A model generated the notes under the pieces. The model ran no database searches and was not told where the DNA came from. It was given only the letters and a program-made list of their open reading frames with translations. From positions 1 through 46,063 of the forward strand of contig JAICFA010000001.1 in assembly GCA_025923935.1 (NCBI GenBank): a DNA stretch of 46,063 nucleotides, read 5' to 3'. Of the stretch, positions 18,511-42,843 are shown in pieces; the stretch's first letter is position 1; each line of letters begins with the position of its first letter. Source of the DNA: Candidatus Krumholzibacteriia bacterium. Its GTDB lineage: Bacteria > Krumholzibacteriota > Krumholzibacteriia > WVZY01 > JAKEHA01. The position numbers were made by a program, and so were the translations under genes.

Positions 18511-18843
18511 TGTATTGACCTCCTCTGGTGGGAATGGCGTTTTCACCGATCTTCGCCGGTCACCACCGGCCCATTCCCGTTGATATCGGCTACTAACCAA
18601 ACGCCCTGACGGGTGCTCCGCTGGGGCAGTGCGCCTTGCGGCGAACGATCAATTACCCGAGCCCATTCACCTCCTTGCCGAAGGCACTCCTGGCAGCGGC
18701 CCTTGCGGACCGCCTTTACGAGTCATCAATCGCGCGGCCTGTCGCGGCCCACGCCCTCCGGTTCGTCTTCCGGCACCCGCCACGCGGGCAGAAGCTCCGG
18801 GGAAGGGCCTCCTTTTCGGAGACACTTCCAGCTTTGAGCGCGA

Positions 18844-21795: not shown

Positions 21796-21852
21796 GTGCG
21801 CGCGAGCGTAGCGCAAGCCGCGCGCCCGCTGCAATCGAAGCGTTTGGCGCTT

Positions 21853-23406: not shown

Positions 23407-23495
23407 ACCGGCGCGCGATTCGTCGCAAATTCGTGTCTTAGTCGCGCGCCGAAAATCGCGTCGAGGAATCGATCGTATCGTCCCGATTCGCAAAC

Positions 23496-24776: not shown

Positions 24777-24850
24777 GGGTCGGGCCGAGCGGCGACTTGA
24801 AGGGAACTTAGGCGACCGCCCGGCTCGGGGGCAAGGAGGAACCCCAGCGA

Positions 24851-26101: not shown

Positions 26102-26104
26102 GGC

Positions 26105-27349
26105 TTACTCCGAGCGCAGCGCTTCCACCGGGTCGAGGCGCGCGGCGCGCAGCGCGGGATAGGTGCCGAAAACGAGCCCCAACGCGATGGTCACCGCCAG
26201 TGCCACTCCTACCACGGCGGCGTTCACCACGTAGGGAAGCACCGACAGCGCCGACACGATGGCCGCGATGGAGAATCCGATCGCCATTCCCGCCACACCC
26301 CCGAATACCGACAGCGTTGCGGACTCCACCAGGAATTGCCACATGATCGCACCCTGCGGCGCGCCCACCGCCTTGCGCAATCCCACTTCGCGGGTGCGCT
26401 CGGTGACCGACACCACCATGGTGTTCATCAGCACAATGCCGCCCACCAGCATGGACACGCTCACCAACGCCACCAGCGCGGTCATGACGCCGCGACTGAC
26501 CGACTTCCATAGATTGATCAGCTGTTCGCTCGACGACACCGCGAAATCGTTTTCTGCGCGCGGGCCCAGGCCGTGGCGGATGCGCATCGCGACCGTGGCC
26601 TCCTCCATGGCGGCGTCGAGATTGCGAATGTCGTCGGCGACAATTTGGATCTGGACCGATTCATTCGGACCGAAGAGCTTGCGGAACGCACCCAGCGGTA
26701 CGATGACGAAGCGGTCGCGGCTCTGCCCCAGCACCTTGCCGCGTTGCGCGGCCACGCCGACCACGCGAAAGTGGCGGTTGCCGATACGAATCACCGCACC
26801 CGACGCGTCGCGCGGCGCGAGCAGCGCCTGGTACACGTCCCACCCCACCAGTGCGACTTGCGCGTTCTCGCGGTCGTCCACCTCGGTGACGTGGCGGCCT
26901 TCGGCCAGCGGAATCTCGTTCACGAACGGGTAGTATGCGTCGCAGCCCGCCACCTCGACCTCGACGCTCTTGCTCAGCGCGGACACCTTCACCGCGTCCT
27001 GGGCAGCGCGCGCGCTCACGTAGCGCGCGTGCTGGAGCGACTCGCGCAGCGCGACGGCGTCGGCGCGCGTGAGCTGCGGGTTGTGCAAGACTTTATCGAC
27101 GAACTTTTCGAAGTCCTCGATGGCCTGGAAGAAATCGACGCGGCGAATGGTGAAGAGGTTGCTGCCTTCGGACGCCACCTCGGTACGCATGTACAGATCG
27201 ATGCCGCCCAAGAGCGACACCACCGCGATCACCGACATGATGCCGACGATGTTGCCGAGCAGAGTGAGAAACGTGCGCAGCTTGTTGGCCGAGAGCGCGT
27301 GGTACGCGATGCGCACGCCCTCGAGGACGACGCGAAGAGTCGGACGCAT
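26105..27349 (-). CDS. MacB/FtsX-type ABC transporter permease (first of two)
   Basis: Same architecture as its neighbour (VSVTERTREVGLRKAVGA...). 3-nt gaps on both sides. Confidence 0.9.
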   Translation of the reverse strand: MRPTLRVVLEGVRIAYHALSANKLRTFLTLLGNIVGIMSVIAVVSLLGGIDLYMRTEVASEGSNLFTIRRVDFFQAIEDFEKFVDKVLHNPQLTRADAVALRESLQHARYVSARAAQDAVKVSALSKSVEVEVAGCDAYYPFVNEIPLAEGRHVTEVDDRENAQVALVGWDVYQALLAPRDASGAVIRIGNRHFRVVGVAAQRGKVLGQSRDRFVIVPLGAFRKLFGPNESVQIQIVADDIRNLDAAMEEATVAMRIRHGLGPRAENDFAVSSSEQLINLWKSVSRGVMTALVALVSVSMLVGGIVLMNTMVVSVTERTREVGLRKAVGAPQGAIMWQFLVESATLSVFGGVAGMAIGFSIAAIVSALSVLPYVVNAAVVGVALAVTIALGLVFGTYPALRAARLDPVEALRSE

Positions 27350-27352
27350 GCG

Positions 27353-28639
27353 CTACGACCCCTTCCGGCGCTCCGCGTCCTGCTTGACCTTGACCGCTTG
27401 ACCGTCCTTCAAATCGGCGATGGTCTTGAACGGCCCTGACACCACCTGTTCGCCCTCTTTCAATCCCGAAAGCACCACGAAATGGCTCTGGCCGGCGATG
27501 CCGACGCGCACCGGCCGGAAATGAGCGACGCCGTCCGCCACCACGAACACGCCTTCGATTTCGCGAGGCTTTTCGTCGCTGGAGGCGGTGTCCGCGGAGG
27601 TGGTGTCGCTCGCCTGCGCCTCGTCGTTCTTGCCGCGACGCTTTTCGCGCGCGAGACGCGCGGGGTCGCGCACGGTGAGACACTGAATCGGAACGGCGAG
27701 TGCTTTCTTCTCTTTCGCGACACCGATGTCGACCGACGCCGACAGTCCCGGACGAATGTTGGGGATGGAATCGTTGATGGCAACCACGACTTTAAAATCG
27801 ACCGACTCCTGCCCCATGCCGACTTGCATGCGCAACGCACTATTGCCGACTTCGGTGACCACGCCGCGATAGGTGGTGTCGGGCTGCGCGTCGAGGCGGA
27901 CGGTGGCGTCTTGCCCGGTGCGCACGAGCACCACTTCAGTCTCGTCGACGCGCACCTCCGCCTCCATCTCGGAAAGATCGGCGATGGTCAACAGCACCGT
28001 GCCGGGGTTGTTGATGGTGCCCATGATGGCGCTCTCGCCCTCCTCGACGTTCAAGGTGGTAATCACCCCCGACATCTCCGCCACGATGCGCACCTGGCGC
28101 AAGTCGTGGCGCGCCCGCCGCAGGTTGGCCTGCGCTTGCGCGTGCATCTCCTCCGCCGACTGCACGCGCGCGCGCGCCATATCGAGCAACGCTTGCGCGT
28201 CCTTGAGCTCGGTGTCGGACATGAATCCTTTTTCGCCCAACTGGCGCGCGCGGTCGAAGTCGTATTCCGCCTTGCGCAGTCCCGCTTGCTCGAGCTGGAG
28301 GGTCGCTTCCGCGCCGCGCACGGCCGCCTGCAGCTGCTCGACCGTGGTTTCGTACGGCTCGGCGTCGATTTCGAGGAGGAAGTCGCCCTTCTTCACCCGC
28401 TGCCCTTCCGCCACCGCGAGCTTGGTCACACGGCCGATGGTGGTCGCACTGACGTCGACGCGGCGCTTGGGCTGGATCTCGCCCGACGCGGTGACCACCT
28501 TCGATACGTCGCGGCGGCCTACGTCCGCCACTTCCACGTCCACGCGCTTACCGCGTTTGCTCCCCAGATTGATGGCGAGCAATGCGGCCAGCACCAGCAC
28601 GCCGGCCGCCACCATGATGGTCTTTCGCTTCCTGGTCAC
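27353..28639 (-). CDS. Periplasmic adaptor (HlyD/MacA-type membrane fusion protein)
   Basis: N-terminal TM, lipoyl/barrel-sandwich halves flanking a coiled-coil hairpin (LQAAVRGAEATLQLEQAGLRKAEYDFDRARQL...). GTG start 5 nt after AAGGAG. Confidence 0.9.
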   Translation of the reverse strand: MTRKRKTIMVAAGVLVLAALLAINLGSKRGKRVDVEVADVGRRDVSKVVTASGEIQPKRRVDVSATTIGRVTKLAVAEGQRVKKGDFLLEIDAEPYETTVEQLQAAVRGAEATLQLEQAGLRKAEYDFDRARQLGEKGFMSDTELKDAQALLDMARARVQSAEEMHAQAQANLRRARHDLRQVRIVAEMSGVITTLNVEEGESAIMGTINNPGTVLLTIADLSEMEAEVRVDETEVVLVRTGQDATVRLDAQPDTTYRGVVTEVGNSALRMQVGMGQESVDFKVVVAINDSIPNIRPGLSASVDIGVAKEKKALAVPIQCLTVRDPARLAREKRRGKNDEAQASDTTSADTASSDEKPREIEGVFVVADGVAHFRPVRVGIAGQSHFVVLSGLKEGEQVVSGPFKTIADLKDGQAVKVKQDAERRKGS

Positions 28640-28651
28640 TCGTGCTCCTTA

Positions 28652-29344
28652 CTACGCCGGAATGGGGTCGCGACGCCGGTCCACTTCGATGCGGCCGTCG
28701 CGCAGCCGCACTTCGCGTCGCGCGTGCGCCGCGACGGCGTCGTCGTGCGTCACCACGATTAGCGTGTTGCCGCGAGCGTGCAGCTCCTCGAACAGCTTCA
28801 TGATCTCCGCGCCCGACTTCGAGTCCAAATTACCGGTGGGCTCGTCGGCGAGAATGATGGAGGGCCGGTTGACCAGTGCGCGCGCGATGGCGACGCGCTG
28901 GCGTTGCCCGCCCGAGAGCTCGTTGGGTTTGTGGTGGGCGCGATCCTGCAGCCCCACCGCCTCCAGCGCGGCGGCCGCGCGCTCGCGCCGCGTGCCGGCG
29001 TCCAACCCCGCGTAGATCAGCGGCAGCTCGACGTTTTGAAACGCCGACGCCCGCGGCAAGAGGTTGAAGGTTTGAAAGACGAAGCCGATTTCTTTGTTAC
29101 GAATGTGCGCCAGCGTGTCGTCCGACATGCTCGTCACATCTTCGCCGTTCAAGACGTAGCGGCCCTCGGTGGGCGAATCGAGGCAGCCGATGATGTTCAT
29201 GAACGTCGTCTTGCCCGAGCCGGAGGGGCCCATCAAGGCGAGGTACTCGTTGCGGTCGACGTCCAGGTCGACCCCGTCGAGCGCGTTCACCACATGGCTG
29301 CCCATTTGGTAGCGCTTGGCAATACCGCGCATTTCGATGAGCAT
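28652..29344 (-). CDS. ABC transporter ATP-binding protein (MacB-NBD/LolD-like, stand-alone)
   Basis: Walker [11 protein letters not shown]-loop, LSGGQRQR, Walker [14 protein letters not shown]-loop VTHD. Confidence 0.95.
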
Positions 29345-29422
29345 AGAAGTGTATGGAGCATAGCACGCGGGCGGGTCGCCGCCTAGCAGCGCCCGCCCGC
29401 GCGAGAAGTGTGCAAGGATCGA

Positions 29423-30751
29423 TTAGCGCGCGGTGACTTTGCGTCCCGTAGCGCGCTGCAGATCGGCACGATTGACGAGATAGTCGACGCGTGCGTCGAT
29501 CAAGCTGGCCTGCGCGGACGTGAGCGACGAGCTCGCTTCGATGGTTTCGAGAATGGTACCGGCACCCACGCGATAGCGCTCTTCCGCCAGGCGCAGGTTT
29601 TCTTCCGCGGCTGCGACCGTTTCCTCCGCCAGCTCGAGGCGCTCGATGGCCTGCTCCAGGTTGAGCACGATCTGCTTGACGTCGAGCACGGCGTCGATCT
29701 TCGCCTGCTGCAAATTCCACTCGGCGATGCGCTGCTGCGCCTCGGTGGCCTGGATGTTGGCCTTGGTCTGGAAGCGGTCGAAGAGATTCCAGTTCAGGAA
29801 CGCACCCACCGACCATTGGTAGTTGTTCTTGAATACCTCACCGCTGCCGGGGAACTCGCGGTCGTTCCAACCGTAGCTGAAGGATCCGTCGATGGTCGGA
29901 TAACGCGCTTTTTTCACCGCCGACAGCTCGGCGCGCGCCGCGTCGATGCGGAACTGGCTGGCCAAGAGGTCGGACCGATTCTCGAACATGTACGCGACCT
30001 CTTGGTTGAAATCGACCTCGGCGGGTCCGAACTCGATCGACTCGTCGATCTCGAGCTCGGTCTCCTGTGGAATGTTGAGGCGCGACTTGAGGCGCGCGTC
30101 GGCTAGTGCCTGCGCGTTGCGCACGTTCATGAGCAACAACTCGCTGTTCGAATAGTCGACACGAGCCTGCAGGTAATCCGCCTTGGTGCGCGAGCCGATG
30201 TTGTAGAAGGCTTCGATCTGTTCCAGGTTGCGGCGCTTGGCCTCCAGGTTGGCAACCTGCACTTCCTCCAGACGGTTTTGCCGCACCAGCTCGTAATACT
30301 CGCGAATGGTAATGGCGCTGACCAGATCCTGCGTGTACTTGAGGTCGTATGCGGCAGCGTCGGCGCTGCGCTTGGAGCGCGTGATGTTGTTGTAATTGGC
30401 ACCCCAGTTGAACAAGGAGAGCTGACTCGAGAGCGAGAACGAATACTGCTCGTAGTCGAAGCCGCTGGGCTGGATGGGACGCCCTTGAGCGTCGATGACC
30501 ACACCGGTGGTCGGCCCCGCCCATGCGTGCCCCGCCCACAAGTTGACCCCCAAGTCGGGCATGAGTCCGCCGTAGCTGCGCATGACATCGCCGCGCGCCA
30601 CTCGCAGGTTTTCCCGCGAAACGCCCACGTCGGTGGACGCTTGCAGAGCGAGGTTGACGCTTTGCTCGAGGTCGAGTACCTCGGCCTGAGCAGTGGGCAC
30701 GAGCGCGCACACGATTAGCAGGTGGGCAGCAATCGCCCGGCGAAGAGTCAT
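29423..30751 (-). CDS. TolC-family outer-membrane efflux channel
   Basis: Signal peptide MTLRRAIAAHLLIVCALVPTAQA, then two OEP repeats along the full length. ATG at 30749-30751 is preferred over the track start at 30814. Confidence 0.88.
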   Translation of the reverse strand: MTLRRAIAAHLLIVCALVPTAQAEVLDLEQSVNLALQASTDVGVSRENLRVARGDVMRSYGGLMPDLGVNLWAGHAWAGPTTGVVIDAQGRPIQPSGFDYEQYSFSLSSQLSLFNWGANYNNITRSKRSADAAAYDLKYTQDLVSAITIREYYELVRQNRLEEVQVANLEAKRRNLEQIEAFYNIGSRTKADYLQARVDYSNSELLLMNVRNAQALADARLKSRLNIPQETELEIDESIEFGPAEVDFNQEVAYMFENRSDLLASQFRIDAARAELSAVKKARYPTIDGSFSYGWNDREFPGSGEVFKNNYQWSVGAFLNWNLFDRFQTKANIQATEAQQRIAEWNLQQAKIDAVLDVKQIVLNLEQAIERLELAEETVAAAEENLRLAEERYRVGAGTILETIEASSSLTSAQASLIDARVDYLVNRADLQRATGRKVTAR

Positions 30752-30912
30752 CTGGTCACCTTCCATTGGCAAGTAAAGAGATGCGGCCACCGCCGCCGTT
30801 GTTTTCGCGAGCAAAGACGAACGTAGTACGGCGGGGGGCGTTCGAATGTTCCGGCCATTATAGCCGCGACCGCCCGCCGGCAGGGGTAAAAAAAGGCGGG
30901 ATGGGAACGTCC

Positions 30913-31350
30913 CTAGGGGGCGCGCGGCGGGGCCGGGGCCCGTTCCTGCTCGCTCGTGAACGACAAGCGCGCGGCGTTGGCCTGCTTGAGCTCCTCGATG
31001 ACGTCCGCGACCACGCCGTAGGGGGCGTGCGTATCGGCGTTGAGCGCGACCACGGCGTCGGGCCGCTCCATCATCGTCGCTTTGATGAGATTCTCGACCT
31101 CGGACAACGCCACCAAGCGGTCATTGATCGAAATTCGTCCACCTTGGTCGATCCAGATGTCGGCGACGTGCTCGCGGCTCGGCTTTTCTGTCGACTGGGC
31201 GCGCGGTAGAACGATCTGAAGCCCCTGGTCGAGCCGGAAGATGGTGGTCGCCATGAAAAAGATGAGCAGCAGGAACGCCACGTCGCCCATCGACACCGTC
31301 GGGATGGTGTTGGCCACACGATTCTTTCGTTCGAAGCGAGACGCGCGCAC
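30913..31350 (-). CDS. exbD: ExbD/TolR-family biopolymer transport protein (second copy)
   Basis: MGDVAFLLLIFFMATTIF TM motif plus a periplasmic ExbD fold. GTG start. Confidence 0.9.
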   Translation of the reverse strand: MRASRFERKNRVANTIPTVSMGDVAFLLLIFFMATTIFRLDQGLQIVLPRAQSTEKPSREHVADIWIDQGGRISINDRLVALSEVENLIKATMMERPDAVVALNADTHAPYGVVADVIEELKQANAARLSFTSEQERAPAPPRAP

Positions 31351-31353
31351 GAA

Positions 31354-31764
31354 TCACTCCACCGTCTTGAGGGAGATGCGGCGACAGTTGGCCAGCTTGA
31401 TCTCGTCCAGCAAATCGACCATCAATCCGTATTCCGCGCTGCGGTGCGTGGTCAATAGCACCACCAACTCGGGATTGCTGCGCAAGCGCTGCTCGATGAT
31501 GCGGCGCACACCCGACACCGCCACGGGTTGGCCCTGGACTTCGACACGGCCGCCCGCCAGCGCCTGGATCTCGAGCACAGCAGACGCGTCCACGCGCGTC
31601 GCGGTGGTGGCTTTTCCGGGCAAGACGAGCGGAATTCCCTCCTCCACCGCGAAGGTGGTCGTCACCACGAAAAACACGAGCAAGAGGAACGCGAGGTCGG
31701 ACATCGACGCGGCCTGAAATTCGCACGCACCAAATTGGAATCTGCCGCGGCGGCGCTGAATCAT
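31354..31764 (-). CDS. exbD: ExbD/TolR-family biopolymer transport protein (first copy)
   Basis: MSDLAFLLLVFFVVTTTF TM motif. Lies 2 nt after the exbB stop. Confidence 0.9.
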   Translation of the reverse strand: MIQRRRGRFQFGACEFQAASMSDLAFLLLVFFVVTTTFAVEEGIPLVLPGKATTATRVDASAVLEIQALAGGRVEVQGQPVAVSGVRRIIEQRLRSNPELVVLLTTHRSAEYGLMVDLLDEIKLANCRRISLKTVE

Positions 31765-31766
31765 GG

Positions 31767-32633
31767 CTAGCTGCGCGACAGCGGAGGTCGTCCGTTCGGG
31801 CGGGACGGGCGATCGAGATCGATGAGCTCATCGACCAAGTCCGCGCTCGCTTCTTCCATCTCGAGCACGAAGCGATCGATCTGCAAAACGAAGTACGAAT
31901 AGAACGCGGACACCGGAACGGCGATCATGAGTCCCGCGGCGGTGGTGATGAGCGCTTCTTCGATCCCCTTCGCCACCAGCTTGGCCGACACTTGCTCGGC
32001 CGCGGCGATGGCGGCGAACGCGGCGATCATACCGGTCACGGTGCCCAAGAATCCGAGCAGCGGGGCCACGTTCGACACCGACGCGAGTGCCAACAGGCCG
32101 CGCTCGAGGTGCGCCATCTCGATAGCACCGGCCGAGTTGATCGCCTTCTCCACCGCTTCTGGGCCGCGCTCGGCGCGCAACAGCCCGGCGTGCATGATGG
32201 CGGCGATGGGACCGCGCGAACGCTGGCACATTTGCAGCGCCGCGTCCGGGCCTTCGGTGCGCAGCGCCTCCGTCACTTCCAGCATGAGCTTGCGCGTGTT
32301 GGTGCGCGCGCGCGAAAGCGTCCACAACCGCTCGACGATGAGCACCAGGCCGATGATGGCGCACAGCAGAAGCGGGTGCATGCAGACGCCGCCCTTGATG
32401 TAGAGCTGGCCCAGCGCACTGTTGCGGATGCGGCCGAAAAACGAGCGGTCGCGGGAGGAAACGGCGGTGTCGGTAGTGGACGGCGTGATAGTGGCCGCGA
32501 CGGAGTCGGAATCCGCCTTCGCGACCACCGGTGCGGTGCGCGGGATGCCGCCTTGCGCCGACGCCACGACCGGCATCAGCAAGAGCGTCAACAGCGCGAG
32601 AACCGGCCAGGTGTTGTTCGGAGTCACTCGCAT
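31767..32633 (-). CDS. exbB: MotA/TolQ/ExbB proton-channel protein with signal peptide and extended periplasmic N-terminus
   Basis: MRVTPNNTWPVLALLTLLLMPVVASAQ, then a ~55-aa Ser/Thr/Ala/Asp-rich stretch, then the ExbB core (...VAPLLGFLGTVTGMIAAF...EALITTAAGLMIAVP...). ATG at 32631-32633; the 478-aa track ORF overlaps the upstream gene. Confidence 0.9.
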   Translation of the reverse strand: MRVTPNNTWPVLALLTLLLMPVVASAQGGIPRTAPVVAKADSDSVAATITPSTTDTAVSSRDRSFFGRIRNSALGQLYIKGGVCMHPLLLCAIIGLVLIVERLWTLSRARTNTRKLMLEVTEALRTEGPDAALQMCQRSRGPIAAIMHAGLLRAERGPEAVEKAINSAGAIEMAHLERGLLALASVSNVAPLLGFLGTVTGMIAAFAAIAAAEQVSAKLVAKGIEEALITTAAGLMIAVPVSAFYSYFVLQIDRFVLEMEEASADLVDELIDLDRPSRPNGRPPLSRS

Positions 32634-32651
32634 ACGCAGTCGACGTGCGCG

Positions 32652-32680
32652 ACCATAGCGGCGCAGCCCTCCCCTGTCAA
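32652..32680 (-). promoter_or_regulatory. Candidate internal sigma70-type promoter directly upstream of exbB
   Basis: Minus strand: TTGACA (32675-32680), 17-nt spacer, TATGGT (32652-32657). The -10 ends 18 nt before the exbB ATG. Confidence 0.35.
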
Positions 32681-32698
32681 CCGCGGCCCGAGCGGGTA

Positions 32699-34261
32699 TT
32701 ACTTTTCGGATACGGTGGAGCTGCGCTCCAGCGTGTAGACGCCGTGGCCGTCGCGGTCGATGAACAGGAAGCGCATACCGATGTCGGTTTCCTGAACCTT
32801 GTCGCGCGCCAGCATGGGCTCGCCGCCGGCTTGGTAAACCCACAGCTCGTAGGGCACGCCCGTGTTGTCTTCCGGCCGGGTGCGCGCGTTGGGCGAACCC
32901 CCGGTGATCGAGTTGCGAATGACGGGCAGCGTGTACGCCTTGGTGGGCCCGGAACTGTAGTTCATGGGATGGTACGGGTCCTCGACGATCGTTTCCGCCT
33001 CTTGCAGGGTTTCGTAGTTGAGGGGAATCACGTCCTGAATGACCTCGTCGGGTGGGCCGTAGCGAAGGTAAATCTCGCCTTGCGGCGATAAGATCGCGGG
33101 ACCGCGCTCGCTGTAGTGCGCATTGATGTACGCCATGCGCTCCACGAAGGTGTCGTACGCCTCGTTGCCGCCGCTGTCGGGTGTGGGGTCGAAGCCCTTC
33201 CACAGCGCATCCAGAACTTGCTCCTGCTCGCCGGGACTCTTCGACTGGAAGGCTGTGAATTCGTCGTCGCCCAAAAGAAAGCGCGCTTCCGCCAAGTACT
33301 CACGCCGCGGAATCTCCCACGTGCGCATGTCCCACGCGACCGAAAAGTCGCCGCTCTTCACGCGCGCGATCGATTCGCCGCCCAATCCGAACGATAAGTA
33401 GAGCGAGTAGACCCCGGCCTGCACCGCGGCGAGGTCTTCGCGCAAGAACACCGGGTAGGCGCGCAAGCCCGTCCCGCTTTGCACCGACGGGTTGGGCAGC
33501 GTGCGCTTGGTTTCGCGCACGAGCTCGCCCTTGGCGTTTATAATTTCCGTGCGAAAGTCGAAGGTCGGTGCTTGGGCCAGCGAGTCGGGCAGATAAAGCT
33601 CGACGTACACCTCCAGCGTGTCCTTGTAGAGCCCGAACATGCGCGCCGGGTTGGGCTGGTACTTGCGAATTCCCTGCTCGCGCTCGTTGACCCCCCACAC
33701 GAAAAGCGGTGTCGAGAACGACGGTTCGTTGTCCGGAATCTCGGGGATGGCGAAGCGGGTGCGCCGCACGACCGACGTCTTGTTCTTGTTCTTGATCAGT
33801 CCCAGGACGCTGATCTTGGGCGCGTCGAGGTTCTCGAGTGCGACCGTGAGCCAGTATCCGCCCGGGGCCAGGTTGAACTGCTTGATAACGGTCTGGTACG
33901 CGAGCGAGCTTTCGACGCGCGCGGCGTTCGTCTCGACGAACGTCATCGTCTCCTTGAGCTTCGCCACTTCCTTGCCGGCGTCGTCGGTGAGTAGGTAGCT
34001 GAAGACCACGCGCGTCTTCCACTCCGCCTTGCCCGACTCCTTGAAACGCAGCGAGTGGTTGCCAATGCGCACGAAGACGTCCGACACCACTTTATCGTCG
34101 CGACCGCGAAAGACGGCGGTGTCGAGGTAGAAGTCGAAGTCGCCGTGGCCCACTTGCTGGGCCGCGGCCGGCAGTGCCGCGCACAGCAGCGCGGCGGCCA
34201 AGAGAAAATGGGCGCCCCGAAGGGCGCCCACGTTCGCGGAAGTCTTCCGCTGTCGAATCAT
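32699..34261 (-). CDS. Secreted GWxTD-like protein with a degenerate motif and an inserted C-terminal segment
   Basis: Signal peptide MIRQRKTSANVGALRGAHFLLAAALLCAALPAAAQ. C-terminus ...ERGPAILSPQGEIYLRYGPPDEV...(63 aa)...YELWVYQ...RFLFIDRDGHGVYTL aligns with the GWxTD protein at 23496-24776, but the GW.TD residues are replaced. ATG at 34259-34261. Confidence 0.75.
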   Translation of the reverse strand: MIRQRKTSANVGALRGAHFLLAAALLCAALPAAAQQVGHGDFDFYLDTAVFRGRDDKVVSDVFVRIGNHSLRFKESGKAEWKTRVVFSYLLTDDAGKEVAKLKETMTFVETNAARVESSLAYQTVIKQFNLAPGGYWLTVALENLDAPKISVLGLIKNKNKTSVVRRTRFAIPEIPDNEPSFSTPLFVWGVNEREQGIRKYQPNPARMFGLYKDTLEVYVELYLPDSLAQAPTFDFRTEIINAKGELVRETKRTLPNPSVQSGTGLRAYPVFLREDLAAVQAGVYSLYLSFGLGGESIARVKSGDFSVAWDMRTWEIPRREYLAEARFLLGDDEFTAFQSKSPGEQEQVLDALWKGFDPTPDSGGNEAYDTFVERMAYINAHYSERGPAILSPQGEIYLRYGPPDEVIQDVIPLNYETLQEAETIVEDPYHPMNYSSGPTKAYTLPVIRNSITGGSPNARTRPEDNTGVPYELWVYQAGGEPMLARDKVQETDIGMRFLFIDRDGHGVYTLERSSTVSEK

Positions 34262-34262
34262 C

Positions 34263-35210
34263 CTAGTAGCTGAACCCGAGCGAGATGCGGTGGACATTGC
34301 CCAAGAAGTCGAAATCGTTCCACGCATAGTCGAACGTCAGATCCGACGTCTGGCTGGTGTCGATGCGCAACCCCATGCCGGCCGACAACCCCTCGGCGTC
34401 GGTGTTGAAGTTATAGCCGCCGCGCAGGAAGAAGAACTGGTTGAAGCCGTACTCCGCGCCCAGGTTGATGCGTTCCTGGTTGTCCGACGGGTGGGTGAAC
34501 TCGAACACGCCCTGAAGGCTGTTGACGCCCTGCGAGTACGGGGTCGCCGCCATCGCCACCTTGAACATCGTCGGCATCTTGGAGGAACGGTCGTCGTAGT
34601 CGACTTCGCTGCCGAGGCTCTGGATCATCATGCCCAGCCGCATGCCCCACAGACCGATGCGGTAGATCAATCCGAAGTCGAAGGCGAAGGTGTTCACACT
34701 CTTCTCCGCCAAACCGGAGTGGATGAAGTGCACGGTCGCACCCGAGGAGAACTTGTCGGTGAAGAACTTGGCGTACGACAAACCGAACGACATATCGCCC
34801 GCGTCGAACTCTTCGCCGGTTCCTTCGGGAAGGTAGATGGTGCGCACCACCTGCGGGTCCATGGTGAGCGCGCGCGCGCTGACTCCCCACGTGCCCGGCA
34901 CGAACGGCAGTGTGAACGCACCCGCCGCGTAGTTGAGCTTGATATCGGCGGGCCACCACGTGTACGACAGCGAAATGTCGGTGCGCGTGATATCGACCAT
35001 GCCGGCTGGGTTCCAGTACGTCGCGGTGGCGTCGTTGGAAATGGCGGTGAAGGCACCTCCCATGCCGGAGCCGCGCGCCGACACGCCGATCTTCAGGAAC
35101 TGGAGGGAATATGTACCCACCTTCGCGAAGGGCTCGGTGGCAAACGACTGCGACGGCAGCGCCGCCACGACGAGTGCTGCCGCAATACCCTGCATGAACC
35201 TTGATCTCAC
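34263..35210 (-). CDS. PorV/PorQ-family outer-membrane beta-barrel protein
   Basis: FLKIGVSARGSGMGGAFTAISNDATATYWNPAGM is the hallmark PorV/PorQ N-terminal motif. C-terminal ...HRISLGFSY. GTG at 35208-35210 (9 nt after GGAGG) gives the signal peptide (M)RSRFMQGIAAALVVAALPSQSFA. The track start (TTG, 35219) abuts the SD. Confidence 0.85.
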   Translation of the reverse strand: MRSRFMQGIAAALVVAALPSQSFATEPFAKVGTYSLQFLKIGVSARGSGMGGAFTAISNDATATYWNPAGMVDITRTDISLSYTWWPADIKLNYAAGAFTLPFVPGTWGVSARALTMDPQVVRTIYLPEGTGEEFDAGDMSFGLSYAKFFTDKFSSGATVHFIHSGLAEKSVNTFAFDFGLIYRIGLWGMRLGMMIQSLGSEVDYDDRSSKMPTMFKVAMAATPYSQGVNSLQGVFEFTHPSDNQERINLGAEYGFNQFFFLRGGYNFNTDAEGLSAGMGLRIDTSQTSDLTFDYAWNDFDFLGNVHRISLGFSY

Positions 35211-35246
35211 TGTTTCCAACCTCCTGAAGGATTCCGGCGTACCGGT

Positions 35247-38200
35247 CTAGAACTCAAACCCGAGGCCCAACCGCCACAAACGGTGGGTTTCCCAAATCGT
35301 CGGGTCGAACACCGGGTTGAAGTCGTCGCGGCCGTCGGCGTCCTGATCTTGGAGATAAGCGCCGCCGTACTGCCCTGTTTCCGTCAAATACGATCCGCCA
35401 TCCATTTGCGCCGCGACCAGAGCCGGGAAGGCATTCGGTGCGTTGCCATTGGGCAAAAGCACGTCCTCGTCCAGCAAGTTGCGGCCTTCGAAGAAGAGTG
35501 TCAGCTCGCGTCCGTACACGTTGAAGAGCTTGCGGCCCTGGATCGACAACTTGTGCGTCGGCTCCAAGCGGCGCGAGTTCTCCCACGTGGGATCGTTCAA
35601 ACGCGCGAAGCGATCCACCGGCGTCCACGGGAGTCCCGAGCCGTACTGGTAGATCATGGTCGCGCCCCACTTGTTGCGATCCTGCAAGCGCAGTGTCACG
35701 TTGAACGTGTTGCGCTGGTCCCAGTCGAGCGGATACTCCTCGGTCGGCAAGTGGGTCAAGCCTTCCGCCGAGCGCCCGAAGTCGGAGTCGCTGGCGACAC
35801 CGTCTGCAAACGAATACGTGTAGTAGACCTCGAAGCCCAGGCGGCGCGTGAGCCGCTTCTCCAGCGAGAGCTCCACACCGCGCGAGCTGGCGTACGTGCG
35901 GTTGATGAAGCGAAACGCCTGCACGCCGGTGGAGTCGTCGGTCACACGGGTCGAGGAGATGAGGCCGTAGATGTCCTTGTTGAACACGACGAAGTTGGCC
36001 GCGATGTCGTCGGTGAATTGGTGCGAGATACCGGCCTGATACGACACGGTCAGCTCGGGCTCCAGATTGGGGTTGCCGAGCGTGCCCAGCGAGCCTACCG
36101 GATCCTGGGTGCGAAACAGGAATTGCCGACTCGGCCATTGCGTGAAGCGCCCGTAGTGGAAGAAGAACTTGTCGCGGTCGGTGATGGGAAACGCCACACC
36201 GAGGCGCGGCGAGAGGTTCCACTTGAACTCGTCGACCGATTGGTCGATATCGGCGCTGGCGATGTCGATCTCGCTGTTGTTACCCACCGTGAACCACTCG
36301 TAGCGCAGGCCGCCATTGACGACCATGCCTTCGTAGTCCCACTTGTCCTGCACGTACACCGCGCCTTCGGCGTTGTAGTTCTCGTAGACATTGACGTTCA
36401 GGCCCTGCTGCAGAATCCCGTTCTCGTCGATACGCGTCTGCGCGGGGTTGACGCGCTCGTCGTCGTTCAGGTCGTTATAAAGGACTTGGATACCGGTCTT
36501 GAGGCGGTGACCCTTGAACTGGTCCGAGACCACGTCGCCCTTGAACAGGTACTGCAGCGAGCGCTGGTCCGAATAGAACGGGTAGTCGTAGGCGGTGACG
36601 AAGTACGGGAAGTCGTCGTCCGTGTACCACACCGCATTGGAAACACCCGCGTTCAGGAAGGTGCCGTCCGGCAGGGTGATCGGCAAGCCGGCGGTCGTAA
36701 ACTCCGCCGGCGCTTTCTGCTCGCCCAACTCATCCAGCACCGAGCTCGTGGTCTTAAGATCGAGGCGTGAGAGCTTGAGCGTGTAGAGCAGCTTGGGCGT
36801 GATGTTGTGGCTGAATCCCAGCTTGAGCTGGAGGTTTTCCGCACGCGTCTCGGGCGTGTGCATGGCCGAGTTGAAGGGCACGAACGACGAGTCGGCGCCC
36901 TGCGGTGAGGTGATGAACGGCTTGAAGTCGCTCGCCCCACGCTGGAAGCCTTCGAACAAGGCCCACGGCTTGTAGGTGATGGAACCGTCGGGGGCTTGCT
37001 GGACTTCGTCCCAGAGCACCGTGACCATCGTGGTGCCGATACGGAAGTCGGCCGCGCGGTAGTTGGCGAAGAGCACCTGCGATTGCGTGCCGTCGGGGTT
37101 GCGCACGAAGTCGTACACGTCGACGGGACGCACGTTGAGCATCGCCGCCTGCTTGGCCGGATCCTTCGCGTCCGCCCACGGGCCGTGATTGATGGAGCGC
37201 AGTCGTCCGAACTGGAACTGCTCGCGACCGTTCTGGGGCGGACCGAGCAGGTCGAGGCCCTGGAAAAACCACACCTTTGACACGTAACCCTGAATGTTCC
37301 AGTTGTTGATGAAGTCGTCTTCGCGCAGCGACGAGTAGACCGCCTCGCCGTCGACTTTCATGCGCGACATCTTGTAGGTCATCTTGCCCTGGAGGTTGTA
37401 CGCCGACGTCTGGCGCTGGCGGAATTTGAACCAGTCGGTGATCTTGTGCTCTTCGCGCGGCTCGATGGTGGTGTTCTCGGTGTCGCTCCAGGTCGCTTCG
37501 CCCGAGACGTAGTAGCGCAGGTTCTTCCACCACGTCGGTCCGCCGAAACCAAGGCTCAAGCGGTCGAAGTTGGTGTACGTCTTGTCGGAGCGGCCGAAGT
37601 CGTCGGTGAAGTAGCGCACTTCGCCGCCGAAGGTCGCACCGCCTTCCTTGGTAGCAATATTGATAACCGCCGACTGCGCGTCGCCGTACTCGGCGTCCAT
37701 ACCGCCGGACACGATCTCGGAGCCCGACGTGCCCAAAGTCCCGACGTCGACCGAGCCGCCGCCGAGCGGATCCGACACGGGCACACCGTCGATCTGAATC
37801 TGTACTTCGTTGCTGCGGCCGCCGCGCACGTGCATGTCGTCGCCGGTCTTGACGATGCCTGCCTTCAAACCGACCGCTTCGATGATGTCGTCGACCGGCA
37901 TGTTCTGCACTTGTTCTTCGGAGACGTTGCCGGTGACCTGGGTTTCGGTCACTTCGACCATCGCCTTGTCCGCCGTGACGACGATATCTTGGATCTTCGC
38001 CACAACTTTCTCGTCGAGCTTGAATTGAACCGTCGCGGTGGAGCCGGCGTTGACGACGACGTTGGGTTTTTCCACGGGGGCGTAACCCATCATCATCACT
38101 TTGAGGGTGTAGGTGCCGATGGGGACGGGTTTGATCTCAAACTTACCGTCGGCGAGACTCATGGCACCCATGGTGGTGCCAACCAGAATGACGTTTGCGT

Positions 38201-38342
38201 AAGGGAGGGGCTTACCGTCTTTCGCCGACACCACCGTGCCCGAGATGATCCCGGTTTGCGCCACGGCTGCCGACGTAACAAATCCCAGGAGCGCGAAGAC
38301 GACTACCACAATCGTCAATCCGCGGCTGTCACGTGGGAACAT
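35247..38342 (-). CDS. TonB-dependent receptor with an N-terminal carboxypeptidase-regulatory-like (CarboxypepD_reg) domain
   Basis: Signal peptide, then GIISGTVVSAKDGKPLPYANVILVGTTMGAMSLADGKFEIKPVPIGTYTLKV (CarboxypepD_reg), a TonB-box-like DIVVTADK, the plug (HVRGGRSNEVQIQIDGVPV), a ~800-aa barrel, and C-terminal ...WRLGLGFEF. ATG 38340-38342 is preferred; GTG 38375 is an alternative. Confidence 0.9.
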   Translation of the reverse strand: MFPRDSRGLTIVVVVFALLGFVTSAAVAQTGIISGTVVSAKDGKPLPYANVILVGTTMGAMSLADGKFEIKPVPIGTYTLKVMMMGYAPVEKPNVVVNAGSTATVQFKLDEKVVAKIQDIVVTADKAMVEVTETQVTGNVSEEQVQNMPVDDIIEAVGLKAGIVKTGDDMHVRGGRSNEVQIQIDGVPVSDPLGGGSVDVGTLGTSGSEIVSGGMDAEYGDAQSAVINIATKEGGATFGGEVRYFTDDFGRSDKTYTNFDRLSLGFGGPTWWKNLRYYVSGEATWSDTENTTIEPREEHKITDWFKFRQRQTSAYNLQGKMTYKMSRMKVDGEAVYSSLREDDFINNWNIQGYVSKVWFFQGLDLLGPPQNGREQFQFGRLRSINHGPWADAKDPAKQAAMLNVRPVDVYDFVRNPDGTQSQVLFANYRAADFRIGTTMVTVLWDEVQQAPDGSITYKPWALFEGFQRGASDFKPFITSPQGADSSFVPFNSAMHTPETRAENLQLKLGFSHNITPKLLYTLKLSRLDLKTTSSVLDELGEQKAPAEFTTAGLPITLPDGTFLNAGVSNAVWYTDDDFPYFVTAYDYPFYSDQRSLQYLFKGDVVSDQFKGHRLKTGIQVLYNDLNDDERVNPAQTRIDENGILQQGLNVNVYENYNAEGAVYVQDKWDYEGMVVNGGLRYEWFTVGNNSEIDIASADIDQSVDEFKWNLSPRLGVAFPITDRDKFFFHYGRFTQWPSRQFLFRTQDPVGSLGTLGNPNLEPELTVSYQAGISHQFTDDIAANFVVFNKDIYGLISSTRVTDDSTGVQAFRFINRTYASSRGVELSLEKRLTRRLGFEVYYTYSFADGVASDSDFGRSAEGLTHLPTEEYPLDWDQRNTFNVTLRLQDRNKWGATMIYQYGSGLPWTPVDRFARLNDPTWENSRRLEPTHKLSIQGRKLFNVYGRELTLFFEGRNLLDEDVLLPNGNAPNAFPALVAAQMDGGSYLTETGQYGGAYLQDQDADGRDDFNPVFDPTIWETHRLWRLGLGFEF

Positions 38343-38534
38343 TCGCGAAACCCCTTTCGCTTGCACACGAACCACTACCTAAAGGGCTCGTGCTCAAAAC
38401 GCCGTTAATATGTAGTGGTGGGGACGAATCCCGTCGCGGCGGTCCCAGAGCCTCCGCGGCGGCTTCGAACAAGGTGGGGTCACTCTATCACAGCCGTCCG
38501 CTGCAATACTAGCAATATCAGCGACTTCGACGCC

Positions 38535-38564
38535 AATATAGACCAGCCCGGCGGACATTGTCAA
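38535..38564 (-). promoter_or_regulatory. Candidate sigma70-type promoter of the TBDR operon
   Basis: Minus strand: TTGACA (38559-38564), 18-nt spacer, TATATT (38535-38540), in a locally AT-enriched stretch of the 374-nt gap. Confidence 0.5.
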
Positions 38565-38749
38565 TATAAGTCATCCGTGGGGTGTTCCCGCGGTGTCAGC
38601 CGCCGCGCGAACTAATTGCCAATCACTATCTTGTGGTTACGAGGTGGGGGCGTAACCCGTGGGGAACTTGGGGGAGGGTGCTCCAGCAGTGGATGCACCT
38701 TCATTATGTCTACGACCGCGGGAAGCTGCAAGGCCCGCGCCCGAGATTC

Positions 38750-39769
38750 CTACTTCTCGTACAGCCAGCAGGCGGTTCGATGCCCCGCTTCGACCTCGCG
38801 CTGCGGCGGGGTCTTCTCCCGGCAGATCGCCATCGCATGCGGGCAGCGCGTGTGGAACGCACAGCCCGGCGGCACATTCGCCGGACTCGGCACGTCGCCC
38901 GAGAGCAAGATGCGCTTACGGCGCACGCCCGGCTCGAGGGTTGGCATGGCACTCAACAATGCTTGCGTGTACGGGTGCTTCGGATCGCGATACAGGCGCG
39001 TGGCCGGTGCCACTTCGACGATGCGTCCCAAGTACATCACCGCGACGCGGTCGCTGATGTACTCCACCACACCCAGATCGTGCGCGATGAACAGGTACGT
39101 CAAGTCGAGCGCTTCCTGCAGATCTTTGAGCAAGTTGATGATCTGCGCTTGAATGGAAACGTCGAGAGCACTCACCGGCTCGTCGGCGATGATGAGCTCG
39201 GGATTGACCGCCAGCGCGCGCGCAATGCCGATGCGTTGGCGCTGGCCGCCGGAGAATTCGTGCGGGTAGCGGCTCATGTACTCGGCGGGAATACCGACGC
39301 GATCGAGCAACTCCGCGACGCGCTCGCGCACCGCGTCGCCGGCGGCGAGCTTGTGTATCTTGATGGCCTCCGCGATCATGCTGCCCACGGTGAGGCGCGG
39401 GTTCAGCGAGCCGTACGGATCTTGAAACACGATTTGCATGCGCTTGCGCAGCTTGCGCATGTCACCGGCGTTTTGCTCGAATACATTAGTACCGTCGAAC
39501 GTCACTGTGCCCGAGGAGATGTCGGTGAGGCGCAGGATGGCGCGCGCCAGCGTGGTTTTCCCGCAACCGCTCTCCCCCACCAGCCCCAACGTCTCGCCGC
39601 GATAGATCTCGAAGCTCACACCGTCGACGGCGCGCACCCAGCCCACCACACGCGACAGTACGCCGCGCCGAATCGGGAAGTGCTTGCACAGGTTGTCGAC
39701 CTTGAGCAGCACTTCGCCGCGACGCGCGCTCTTGCGTTCGTTTTGGACGTCGAGCTCAGTGCTAGCCAC
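38750..39769 (-). CDS. Peptide-type ABC transporter ATP-binding protein (OppF/DppF-like)
   Basis: Walker [18 protein letters not shown], Walker [12 protein letters not shown], and the C-terminal oligopeptide-type extension with Cys residues ([17 protein letters not shown]). GTG start overlaps the upstream stop by 8 nt. Confidence 0.93.
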
Positions 39770-40808
39770 CTTGAATGTCCTTCCAGCAGCGAATCCAGTG
39801 CCCCGCGCTCACGTCGCGCAGCTGGATCTCTTCGTTGTCGCAGCGGTACTCGGCGTACTTGCAGCGGTCGGAGAAGCGGCAGCCCTTGGGAAGGGCGAGC
39901 GGATCCGGAACCTTGCCCGGGATGACCTTGAGGCGCTCGCCTTTGTGCGCGATGCGCGGAATGGATTCGCGCAAACCGCGCGTGTAGGGATGTCGCGGGT
40001 CGTTGAACAAGTCGTGGACGCTCGCGATCTCCATCACCTTGCCGGCGTACATGACAATCACGCGGCGACAAGTTTCGGCGATGACGCCGAGATCGTGCGT
40101 GATCATGAGGATGGCCATGCCGAAGGTCTGCTGCAGGCTCTGCAACAGGTCGAGAATTTGCGCCTGGATGGTAACGTCGAGGGCCGTGGTCGGCTCGTCG
40201 GCGATCAGCAAACTTGGGTTGCACGACAGCGCCATCGCAATCATGACGCGCTGGCGCATGCCGCCCGACAGCTGGTGCGGGTACGACTTGGATACGCGCT
40301 TGGGATCGGGAATCTTGACCAGCGACAGCATCTCCAGAGTGCGCTCTTGCGCCTCGCGCTTGCTGACCTTCTGGTGCAGCACGACGGCTTCTTCCACTTG
40401 GTAGCCGCAGGTGAACACCGGGTTCAGGCTGGTCATCGGCTCCTGGAAGACCATCGAGATCTCGTTGCCGCGGATCTTGCGCATGTCGCGCTCGGGGAGC
40501 TTCAAGAGGTCGTTGCCCTTGAAGATGATCTCGCCGCCCTCGATGCGTCCCGGCGGCGTCTGGATGAGGCGCATCAGCGCCAGTGCGGTGACGGTCTTGC
40601 CGCATCCGCTCTCGCCCACCACGCCGAGCGTTTCACCTTGGCGAATGGAAAAACTCACGCGGTCGACGGCGCGCGCGCGCCCGTCGGGCGTGTCGAAGCT
40701 GACGGTGAGGTCGCGAATGTCAAGCAGCGTGTCGACGGCCTCGACGGCCGTGGCACGAGGATCGGTGCTTTTCGCGTCCATCGTCTTGGGATCGTATCGC
40801 CTATTCAT
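39762..40808 (-). CDS. Peptide-type ABC transporter ATP-binding protein (OppD/DppD-like)
   Basis: Walker [29 protein letters not shown], and a C-terminal [17 protein letters not shown] tail. ATG at 40806-40808. Confidence 0.93.
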
Positions 40809-40821
40809 TATTTCCGACAAT

Positions 40822-41864
40822 CTATACCTCGGTCGACGAGCGAACCTCGAGCGCGTCGCGAATGCCGTCGCCCACCATGTTGAGTGCCACCACCGCGGCA
40901 GTGATCGCCAGCGCCGGGAATGCACTCACCCACCAGGCGCTGCCCAGCGCGTCGCGGCCTTCGAACACCATCCCGCCCCAGCTCGGCGTGGGGGGGGCAA
41001 GACCCAGGCCCAGGAACGATAGCGTCGATTCGATCAAAATCACCGTGCCCGCGTTAAGCGTCGCCGCGACTACCACGGCGCCGACCGCGTTCGGCATCAG
41101 GTGTCGCGCCAACAGGCGCGGTGTCGCGACACCGGTCGCGACCGCCGCCTCGACGAACTCGCGCAAGCGCATTCGCCGCACCTCGCCGCGCACGATGCGC
41201 GCGAGGCCCATCCACCCCGTCGCCGCAATGAAGACCGCCAGAGTTCCCGCCCCGGGTGGCACCAGTGCCACTGCGGTCAAGATCAGCAATAGGCGCGGGA
41301 ACGACAAGAGCCCGTCCACCACGCGCATCATGATGTCGTCCACGCGCCGCGGTGCAATGCCCGAGAGCGCACCGAACACGGTCCCGATGACCATGGCCAG
41401 CGCCACCGAGAGCGCGCACACGGCAAACGACGCGCGCGCGCCGTACACCAGCCGCGCCCAGACGTCGCGCCCGAAGCGGTCCGTCCCCAGGGGATGGTCC
41501 GCGCTGGGAGCGCTGTACCGAACCGCGGGGGCGACTTCGCTCGGATCGGCGCCGGTGACGAGTGGGCCCAGCTGGGCCACCCCGATCATCGCCACCAAGA
41601 GCGCGAACGCCGTGAGCGCCACCGCGTCGCCGTCGAAGCGGCGACGGACTCGCCCGCGACGCCGCGCGGTCCAGACCATCACGGCGTAGGCGCACGCCCA
41701 CCCCGACAAGACGACCCCCAACTCGTGGGGAGGTAGGCCGGTCAATGTGGGCAGGCGCACGATCACGACGGCGGAATACGCGCTTACGACCGCTGCAAGA
41801 ACGGCGCCAACGCCCTGGCGCGTCCCGGGGCTCGCAAACGGAAGCCAGGTAACCCCTTCGGCTC

Positions 41865-41868
<4 letters not shown>
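40822..41868 (-). CDS. Peptide-type ABC transporter permease (OppC/DppC-like); N-terminal boundary uncertain
   Basis: [16 protein letters not shown] motif and EAA loop ([20 protein letters not shown]). GTG 41866-41868 makes a GTGA overlap with the upstream permease stop. An internal ATG at 41679 would give a conventional-length protein. Confidence 0.85.
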
Positions 41869-42833
<965 letters not shown>

Positions 42834-42843
42834 GGCCTCCTGA

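Follow-up and report, generated by a model that had tools for sequence, protein, structure and literature searches.

A TonB-dependent receptor encoded with a PorV-family barrel and a GWxTD protein in Krumholzibacteria

RagAB of Bacteroidota imports oligopeptides. In RagA/RagB and SusC/SusD, a receptor with a CarboxypepD_reg-like N-terminus, a V-V-T-type TonB box, a plug and a large barrel is encoded beside accessory outer-membrane or surface components. Here we analyze a cluster of six genes with a receptor of the same construction, found in a 46,063-nt stretch of DNA from a Candidatus Krumholzibacteriia bacterium (contig JAICFA010000001.1), which we refer to as the window. The genes encode a TonB-dependent receptor, a barrel of the PorV/PorQ family, a GWxTD protein, ExbB and two ExbD proteins, and they are flanked by genes for peptide ATP-binding cassette (ABC) importers. 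Unlike SusC/SusD and RagA/RagB, the window contains no SusD/RagB homologue, and the partners of the receptor are the PorV/PorQ-family barrel and the GWxTD protein. With a probability that we put at roughly 0.5, the cluster encodes a TonB-energised uptake complex in which the PorV-like barrel is the docking or anchor subunit, the GWxTD protein is the periplasmic partner and TonB comes from elsewhere.

Several other described systems bear on this reading. Oar of Myxococcus, a receptor-type barrel with a CarboxypepD_reg N-terminus, is implicated in secretion. PG0534 is a TonB-dependent-receptor-like component of P. gingivalis type IX secretion (T9SS; PMC5445135). Within T9SS, PorV and PorQ hold PorU and PorZ, respectively, which retain their C-terminal domains (CTDs); PorP-like barrels hold type B CTD proteins, and the periplasmic PorE is the third member there (PMC10202324; PMC9143113). 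BamG, a FadL-like 14-strand barrel, is a fixed subunit of BamA in the Bacteroidota beta-barrel assembly machinery (BAM), where it holds a surface protein through its loops (PMC12578637). For the motor, the nearest parallel is ExbB of Serratia marcescens, whose long periplasmic extension binds the dedicated TonB paralogue HasB (PMC9008036).

The receptor, the PorV-like barrel and the GWxTD protein

All six open reading frames (ORFs) are co-directional on the minus strand, as are nearly all genes in the window, and their recomputed intergenic gaps are 27, 1, 65, 2 and 3 nt. The receptor is encoded first (35247-38342; 1031 aa from the ATG at 38342), followed by the PorV/PorQ-family outer-membrane barrel (34263-35219; 318 aa, ending in ...GFSY), the GWxTD protein of subtype 1 (32699-34261; 520 aa), ExbB (31767-32633; 288 aa, with its start at 32633), ExbD-1 (31354-31764; 136 aa) and ExbD-2 (30913-31350; 145 aa). 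The original prediction of six co-directional genes at these gaps, behind a TTGACA-18-TATATT promoter, was reproduced in full.

The receptor consists of a signal peptide, a CarboxypepD_reg domain, a TonB box (QDIVVTADK), a plug and a barrel. From the whole window we chose about 39 ORFs as likely coding and searched them with Pfam; in the receptor CarboxypepD_reg scored 68 bits and the barrel domain PF00593 scored 98 bits over residues 557-967 (cut-off 27). The Plug domain PF07715 reached 22.6 bits, slightly below its cut-off of 23.9; this region is nearly invariant in 21 loci and carries the canonical motifs. Motif-level comparison shows that the TonB box, (Q)(D/E)IVVTA(D/E)(K/R), and the plug are kept both in relatives that encode TonB beside the cluster (TonB+) and in those that do not (TonB-), so that the DIVVTADK box and plug noticed at the outset are conserved across the alignment. 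The ratio of nonsynonymous to synonymous substitution rates (dN/dS) is 0.06-0.14 for the receptor in TonB+ and TonB- pairs alike; dS is 0.6-1.3 for most pairs, making this and the other ratios given below approximate. No SusD/RagB-like match was found among the scanned ORFs. Three of the related loci have a second, paralogous CarboxypepD_reg receptor adjoining the module (L002:168-3266, L004:2157-5183 and L030:2-2575), which is not present in the window.

Homologues of the 520-aa GWxTD protein came exclusively from metagenome-assembled genomes of Krumholzibacteria/Latescibacteria. Loci at 78%, 57% and 45% identity share one long arrangement, which runs from OppD and OppF through the receptor, PorV-like, GWxTD, ExbB, ExbD, ExbD and TolC genes to a MacB-type ABC transporter with two FtsX genes, a second GWxTD protein and SBP_bac_5. 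A scan using one genome per species gave 27 loci, all from Krumholzibacteria/Latescibacteria and extending down to about 40% identity, and profile annotation placed the six genes in the same order wherever the contig was long enough. Among these relatives, the GWxTD gene did not vary independently of its neighbours.

At 30% identity, locus L031 has a receptor gene, a gene for an 813-aa protein, a PorV-like gene and a canonical GWxTD gene, followed by GAPDH-PGK-TIM and lacking ExbBD. Searching from its GWxTD protein reached further lineages, including Candidatus Eisenbacteria, and the core without ExbBD was also present in L032 and in L033 from Eisenbacteria; in L034, from Rubricoccaceae, the GWxTD protein stands alone. 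For metagenomes, a narrower GWxTD alignment was used, the broad one being too divergent, and this yielded 80 more loci that were annotated with custom profiles. The core recurs in about 45 metagenome loci, where, wherever room allows, the PorV-like gene is preceded by the receptor gene and one for a protein of about 800 aa (L088 excepted). Two loci, L069 and L080, combine the Krumholzibacteria-type and distant-type arrangements, with L080 encoding OppDF, receptor, the ~800-aa protein, PorV-like, GWxTD, ExbB, ExbD, ExbD, TonB and TolC in that order. The same OppD-to-GWxTD stretch occurs in L077, followed by MacB/TolC and with no ExbBD-TonB genes.

Because the core recurs without ExbBD or Opp in distant lineages, comparative gene order indicates that the invariant part of the system is the receptor, the PorV-like barrel and the GWxTD protein, and that the Ton motor and Opp are lineage-specific additions. 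The dedicated six-gene module first proposed for this locus is therefore upheld as a conserved unit in which both the PorV-like gene and the GWxTD gene stay closely associated with that of the receptor, but ExbBD falls outside its universal core. The six genes represent the Krumholzibacteria form of a conserved outer-membrane module, and in Krumholzibacteria and a few neighbouring lineages the core comes with its own ExbB-ExbD-ExbD-TonB motor. Literature searches on Latescibacteria/Krumholzibacteria with T9SS, or on PorV with TonB and ExbD, returned nothing relevant to the module, and as far as the searchable literature shows, a module with a PorV-family barrel and a GWxTD protein is an undescribed variant of TonB-dependent transport.

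Gene order makes up most of the evidence, and common descent links the Krumholzibacteria loci. This leaves room for an account in which synteny was inherited without functional coupling, the PorV-like protein being the T9SS PorV or PorQ of the genome and the GWxTD protein an unrelated periplasmic protein; other GWxTD proteins that stand alone, as in L034, or beside MacB-type transporters are in keeping with it. However, the trio or quartet of genes survives complete turnover of its flanks, in loci whose GWxTD proteins are 23-47% identical to that of L031. Of the 54 non-redundant loci that offer 1.3 kb or more of upstream sequence, 53 (effectively 54, since the exception is an ORF-calling artefact) have a PorV-like gene directly 5' of the subtype-1 GWxTD gene, as opposed to none of nine loci for the second GWxTD subtype. 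In addition, gaps of 1-50 nt suggest co-transcription. We consider uncoupled synteny very improbable.

The barrel encoded between receptor and energiser matched the PorV/PorQ family model NF033709 over its full length at 212 bits (cut-off 90), in agreement with its initial assignment. It scored below cut-off with the PorV and PorQ equivalog models (NF033710, 92.3 bits with a cut-off of 250; NF033711, 92.5 bits with a cut-off of 220) and matched F. johnsoniae PorV (6h3i_F) weakly, with an E-value of 2.8e-4. Its dN/dS of 0.06-0.11 is the lowest or near-lowest of the cluster. By analogy with PorV, we expect a FadL-like barrel of 14 strands. BamG shows that a FadL/PorV-type barrel can be a fixed part of a larger one. 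It partners BamA rather than a TonB-dependent receptor and was compared with the module barrel at the level of the FadL-like fold class.

The GWxTD protein matched TIGR04514 at 54.1 bits (cut-off 28). Pfam PF20094 gave no match to the 520-aa window protein and did match some of its orthologues and L031-type relatives. As the description "degenerate" had implied, the motif that names the family is replaced by ILSPQG, and throughout the Krumholzibacteria orthologues the aligned position reads (I/F)(L/F)(S/T)(P/A)(Q/R)G. The signal peptide ends in AxA-type sites typical of signal peptidase I and the alignment has no conserved lipobox Cys, from which we infer a Sec-exported, soluble, periplasmic protein. 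An orthologue in a TonB+ locus (L029:9845-11568) is split over several frames, possibly as a pseudogene or through an assembly frameshift.

AlphaFold2 did not resolve the C-terminal half of the GWxTD protein from 22 sequences, and 129 sequences spanning both clades were used instead. The resulting model has a predicted local distance difference test (pLDDT) score of 88 and a predicted template modelling (pTM) score of 0.83. It comprises the signal peptide, two beta-sandwich domains (residues 35-310) and a helical bundle with a small sheet (312-514), interrupted by a disordered, lineage-specific insert at 434-461. Foldseek comparison of GWxTD models with the PDB returned only generic tandem beta-sandwich matches with TM scores below 0.35, and sequence and profile searches of the PDB found no relative. 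The family is large: its profile retrieved 5724 relatives among 1.84 billion cluster representatives, 1613 of them at E ≤1e-10, and many are full-length at 450-550 aa. It has no solved structure or assigned function, and the term GWxTD is unmentioned in the searchable literature. Because GWxTD proteins occur in two strict genomic contexts, one with a PorV-like gene and receptor and the other with a MacB-type ABC/TolC system, their function is open to testing.

The Ton motor and the missing tonB

Pfam PF01618 scored 107 bits on ExbB, and PF02472 scored 76.5 and 88.2 bits on the two ExbD proteins, both of which have an Asp in their transmembrane segment. The signal peptide of ExbB and its Ser/Thr-rich periplasmic extension of about 55 aa can be read from the sequence, as claimed originally, and the signal peptide is predicted to be cleaved. 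The claim that the window lacks TonB and a SusD-like partner also stands: neither TonB_C nor TonB_2 was matched among the scanned ORFs, and phmmer and tblastn searches with the TonB of relatives were negative.

Being "TonB-less" is nevertheless not a defining property of the system. Among the 24 distinct loci that cover the position directly after exbD2, 16 have a tonB gene there (TonB_C, about 215 aa), and two loci have two copies. The gene is absent from the window and from L002, L005, L006, L007, L009, L012 and L013, and L011 and L030 also lack both exbD genes. Given that most relatives carry tonB immediately 3' of exbD2, its absence from the window is best read as a secondary deletion, part of recent reductive evolution in the window's clade that calls for no new mechanism. 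A neighbour-joining tree built from the GWxTD protein divides the TonB-less loci into three groups and places a TonB+ group among them, so tonB was probably lost more than once, two or three times. No remnant of the gene was found in the gap between exbD2 and tolC of TonB-less loci. We used the TonB of a relative as a query and found no orthologue on the large TonB-less contigs (2.06 Mb, 0.71 Mb and a 3.2-Mb chromosome) among the best 120 of 1479 matches, all of which were at least 56% identical; divergent paralogues may fall below this level. The dedicated tonB thus seems to have been lost rather than moved.

Loss of tonB is accompanied by changes in ExbB. Every TonB+ Krumholzibacteria locus with an ExbB match has the motif (D/E)S(F/L)..[AM][PMA]NDS.......I(K/R)K(E/D), which is gone in all TonB- loci, the window included, and replaced there by unrelated Ser/Thr/Ala/Pro-rich sequence. 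In L011 and L030, the ExbB leader and extension are lost entirely. By analogy with Serratia, where ExbB likewise has a signal peptide and a periplasmic extension, we infer that the motif is a contact site for the dedicated TonB, the presence of which it tracks. Unlike the ExbB-HasB system, the window has neither motif nor tonB and encodes two ExbD paralogues. The stepwise loss of tonB, the ExbB motif and the exbD genes amounts to a natural experiment on how the parts of a dedicated Ton motor depend on one another.

Selection on the exbD genes is weaker in TonB-less loci. For exbD1 and exbD2, dN/dS is 0.14-0.43 in most TonB- pairs compared with 0.05-0.12 in TonB+ pairs, and one saturated TonB- comparison gave 0.05. 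Within the window's own clade ExbB and ExbD range from 0.11 to 0.26, and other TonB-less pairs reach 0.43. Constraint on ExbD is thus relaxed in the TonB-less clade yet still purifying; all of these ratios are far below 1, which indicates that the genes remain functional. In L011 and L030 (L011:6192-6966 and L030:8645-9359), the ExbB core is strongly constrained (dN/dS 0.065) despite the loss of the exbD genes, tonB and the extension.

The same observations could be taken to mean that the receptor has become truly TonB-independent, with ExbB-ExbD-ExbD coupled to it through the GWxTD protein or the Pro-rich tail of ExbD2 in place of TonB. Such a replacement would account for the absence of tonB from locus and window, for continued purifying selection on exbB and exbD, and for the lack of a close TonB orthologue on the large TonB-less contigs. 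Several results argue against it. The GWxTD protein is equally present and conserved in TonB+ loci, which argues that it replaces nothing. Its signal peptide is cleavable, and it lacks both a membrane anchor and any similarity to the TonB C-terminal domain. The constraint on ExbD has loosened without being redirected, and exbD is dispensed with altogether in L011 and L030. Moreover, the orthologue search covers the best 120 of 1479 TonB-like matches, and divergent paralogues may exist elsewhere in these genomes. We regard TonB independence as very unlikely. Under the uptake reading, the window receptor would remain TonB-dependent and would draw on a TonB whose gene lies elsewhere, whether or not the local ExbBDD takes part.

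Surface partners and links to type IX secretion

Outside Krumholzibacteria, the gene for the protein of about 800 aa separates the receptor gene from the PorV-like one (L031:6478-8919, L032:6556-8889 and about 30 further loci). Members of this family have 750-1000 aa with DxDxDG-type acidic repeats, and their N-terminal ~700 aa gave no Pfam, NCBIfam or PDB match. The C-terminus is strongly conserved, VVPNPY..A.WDL.P...DPTG..I.F.NLP....I.IYTL.GDLV....G...WNLISRNGQ.IVSGIYLY.V....G..GRFVIIR. In each of the seven members tested, the C-terminal part weakly matched the T9SS type A sorting domain as well as the C-termini of PorZ and PorU. Pfam returned only faint CTD-type matches. A profile of the last ~100 residues had as its best PDB match the CTD of PorU (6za2_A residues 1074-1136, E 0.0033), with the PorZ C-terminus scoring lower. 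No homologue of the ~800-aa protein was found in the window or in L001-L030, consistent with loss of the gene from the locus in Krumholzibacteria. We also considered whether the window receptor is fused with the ~800-aa protein and rejected this, as the receptor shares no similarity with the family.

A bona fide type A CTD occurs on a Latescibacterota chromosome (CP070677.1), in a 454-aa protein encoded directly downstream of the module's second tonB (L021:14907-16268; TIGR04183, 35.3 bits with a cut-off of 23), which establishes that T9SS-type cargo exists in this group. The initial statement that no CTD-bearing cargo is visible therefore applies to the window, but sister lineages have a CTD-like protein inside the module and L021 has a true type A CTD. 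As a candidate cargo in its own right, the GWxTD protein was set aside: it matches no CTD model, and its conserved C-terminus belongs to the GWxTD fold.

The sister-lineage module resembles the PorV-PorU and PorQ-PorZ pairs in placing a PorV/PorQ-family barrel beside a CTD-type protein, and its three layers correspond to those formed by PorP as the barrel, PG1035 as the CTD protein and PorE as the periplasmic member. It differs from the T9SS pairs in that its barrel is no PorV, PorQ or PorP equivalog and in adding a TonB-dependent receptor and, in this phylum, a Ton motor. The window lineage also lacks a CTD protein, and the GWxTD protein showed no relation to PorE in the searches performed. 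From gene order, weak domain similarity and analogy with PorV-PorU, PorQ-PorZ, PorP-PG1035 and BamG-BamH, we propose that the PorV-like barrel would act as the anchor of the receptor complex. In sister lineages it would hold the ~800-aa CTD-bearing protein, and the GWxTD protein may be the periplasmic partner of the complex, as PorE is in PorP-PorE-PG1035.

These resemblances also fit a T9SS-related device for surface attachment or export, in which the receptor would resemble PG0534 or Oar, the barrel would deal with CTD proteins, and the energy would come from ExbBD(-TonB). The PorV/PorQ family membership of the barrel, the CTD-like protein within the module in sister lineages and the T9SS CTD protein adjoining it in L021 all speak for such a device. 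L031-type receptors match PF25183 OMP_b-brl_4 and their modules sit among housekeeping genes, and PG0534 shows that a receptor-like protein can be a T9SS component. Both PG0534 and Oar are tied to secretion and not uptake. However, the window receptor matches no curated T9SS model. Neither the receptor nor the PorV-like barrel reached the cut-off of any NCBIfam T9SS equivalog model, and no T9SS core gene was seen in the window or in the 10-kb flanks on either side of the relatives' loci. The window-lineage locus has no CTD client, and the Opp flanks and extra receptor paralogues (L002, L004, L030) are typical of uptake loci. We view an export or attachment device as possible but unlikely. Import and export or attachment are not mutually exclusive roles.

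We favour a capture-and-import complex like SusCD that would be built with T9SS-type parts, importing its substrate and perhaps handing oligopeptides to the flanking Opp permeases. The arguments for import are the TonB box and plug, the receptor paralogues of L002, L004 and L030, the peptide ABC parts on both sides and an NlpC/P60-SH3 peptidase; we also counted expression that appears, from the upstream region described below, to be tightly regulated. Several points weigh against this reading. Membership of the SusC/RagA group is not borne out, as TIGR04056 scored 50.9 bits against a cut-off of 368 and matched residues 44-168 only. The fold of the GWxTD protein is uninformative on its function. 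Individual CTD matches in the ~800-aa protein are below cut-off, the best being 22.6 bits for TIGR04183 (cut-off 23). With no CTD protein in its locus, the window lineage offers no visible client for the anchor role. Finally, Opp adjacency is limited to Krumholzibacteria and L077 and L080, with L031-type loci lying beside GAPDH-PGK-TIM; the peptide idea therefore rests on lineage-specific synteny, and a peptide substrate may be no more than hinted at in this lineage.

The results also suggest that, outside Bacteroidota, there are phyla in which the partners of TonB-dependent receptors are anchored in T9SS style and are not SusD-type lipoproteins. We speculate further, and tentatively, that the module is an undescribed hybrid machine of phyla related to the Fibrobacteres-Chlorobi-Bacteroidetes (FCB) group, in which a Ton-powered barrel would have a surface partner that a CTD and a PorV-family anchor, in place of lipoproteins, deliver and hold, with GWxTD proteins as periplasmic coupling subunits; we think this rather doubtful as it stands. 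If true, GWxTD proteins would represent a new coupling-subunit family for machines that span the envelope; the second subtype is encoded beside MacB/FtsX-TolC exporters.

The upstream region and neighbouring genes

The candidate promoter of the cluster, TTGACA(38564-38559)-18-TATATT(38540-38535) on the minus strand (38535-38564), has 11 of 12 consensus matches. Such matches are not enriched in the region, with two found and 2.2 expected. We footprinted the 407-nt spacer between oppF and the receptor phylogenetically and found both hexamers invariant in nine aligned loci, and the site was recovered by pattern in 15 loci. This invariance in position and sequence supports the predicted promoter much more strongly than the consensus match does.

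Between promoter and receptor lies a 5' leader that is conserved and structured (38343-38529, minus strand), which is 150-190 nt long across loci. In order, it contains an invariant GUGAUAGAGUGACCCCACC, a variable hairpin, GUCCCCACCAC, a second hairpin and the Shine-Dalgarno sequence AAAGGGGU; two (G/U)(A/C)CCCCACC motifs flank a covarying hairpin. Compensatory changes occur in five of the six pairs of the central hairpin. In the leader alignment, 92.6% of cells are paired compared with 29-49% for slid controls, and the covariation score exceeds that of all 500 shuffles. Single-sequence folding is unremarkable (z = -0.83), and support for structure comes from the alignment. RNAalifold pairs GUGACCCC, the first C-rich motif, with the Shine-Dalgarno sequence, and these pairs never vary; the model makes it possible that the leader sequesters the ribosome-binding site. 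The receptor ATG at 38342 sits behind AAAGGGG, and its ORF can be extended to 38375.

A known riboswitch upstream of the receptor, which could have named the substrate, was ruled out, since Rfam gave no match on this region or on the window as a whole. Having no Rfam family, the leader is a candidate for a new cis-regulatory RNA, and it offers a handle on which signal controls the system. The stretch from oppF to the receptor promoter holds a second invariant block, UGCAUCCACUGCUGGAGCACCCUCCCCCAAGUUCCCCACGGG (38656-38731, minus strand; conserved at 38697-38656), with a promoter-like site of its own, TTGCAG-17-CATAAT. In L009 and L010 the block is followed by a hairpin resembling a terminator, and it may represent a small RNA, an operator or another regulator-binding region. 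The sequence CCCCACC occurs 14 times in the window compared with 5.8 expected, with three copies on the minus strand within 38417-38649.

Two further promoter-like elements lie downstream. One is TTGACA-17-TATGGT (32652-32680, minus strand) in the 65-nt gap 5' of exbB, found by consensus scan, and the other is a perfect TATAAT without a -35 hexamer (30857-30862, minus strand) within the 98-nt gap before tolC. From these sites the motor and the exporter may each have a transcription start of their own.

Directly upstream of the receptor are OppB, OppC, OppD and OppF without a binding protein (38750-42884, minus strand; Pfam), and OppDF or OppF adjoins the receptor across the loci in which the upstream flank is covered, and also in L077 and L080. 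Downstream, the minus strand encodes TolC, a MacB-type ABC transporter (ATPase, membrane fusion protein and two FtsX), a second GWxTD protein, SBP_bac_5, OppB2, OppC2 and an NlpC/P60-SH3 protein (18924-30814; Pfam). Genes for the peptide ABC system thus fall in two places, OppBCDF upstream of the module and SBP_bac_5, OppB and OppC, encoded without ATPases, 15 kb downstream (18924-23583, minus strand), where the NlpC/P60-SH3 peptidase follows them. A 465-aa ORF (17203-18600, minus strand) had no Pfam match and gave a weak score of 47 bits with the PopA porin-like outer-membrane family (cut-off 150).

The second GWxTD protein (23496-24776, minus strand; 426 aa) has a canonical GWRSD motif and follows the two FtsX genes of the MacB-type ABC/TolC exporter. 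Lower-scoring GWxTD proteins of this second subtype (loci L094-L098, L100, L103-L108, L113 and L114) occur as tandem pairs beside FtsX-FtsX and an ABC ATPase, with TolC nearby in three loci.

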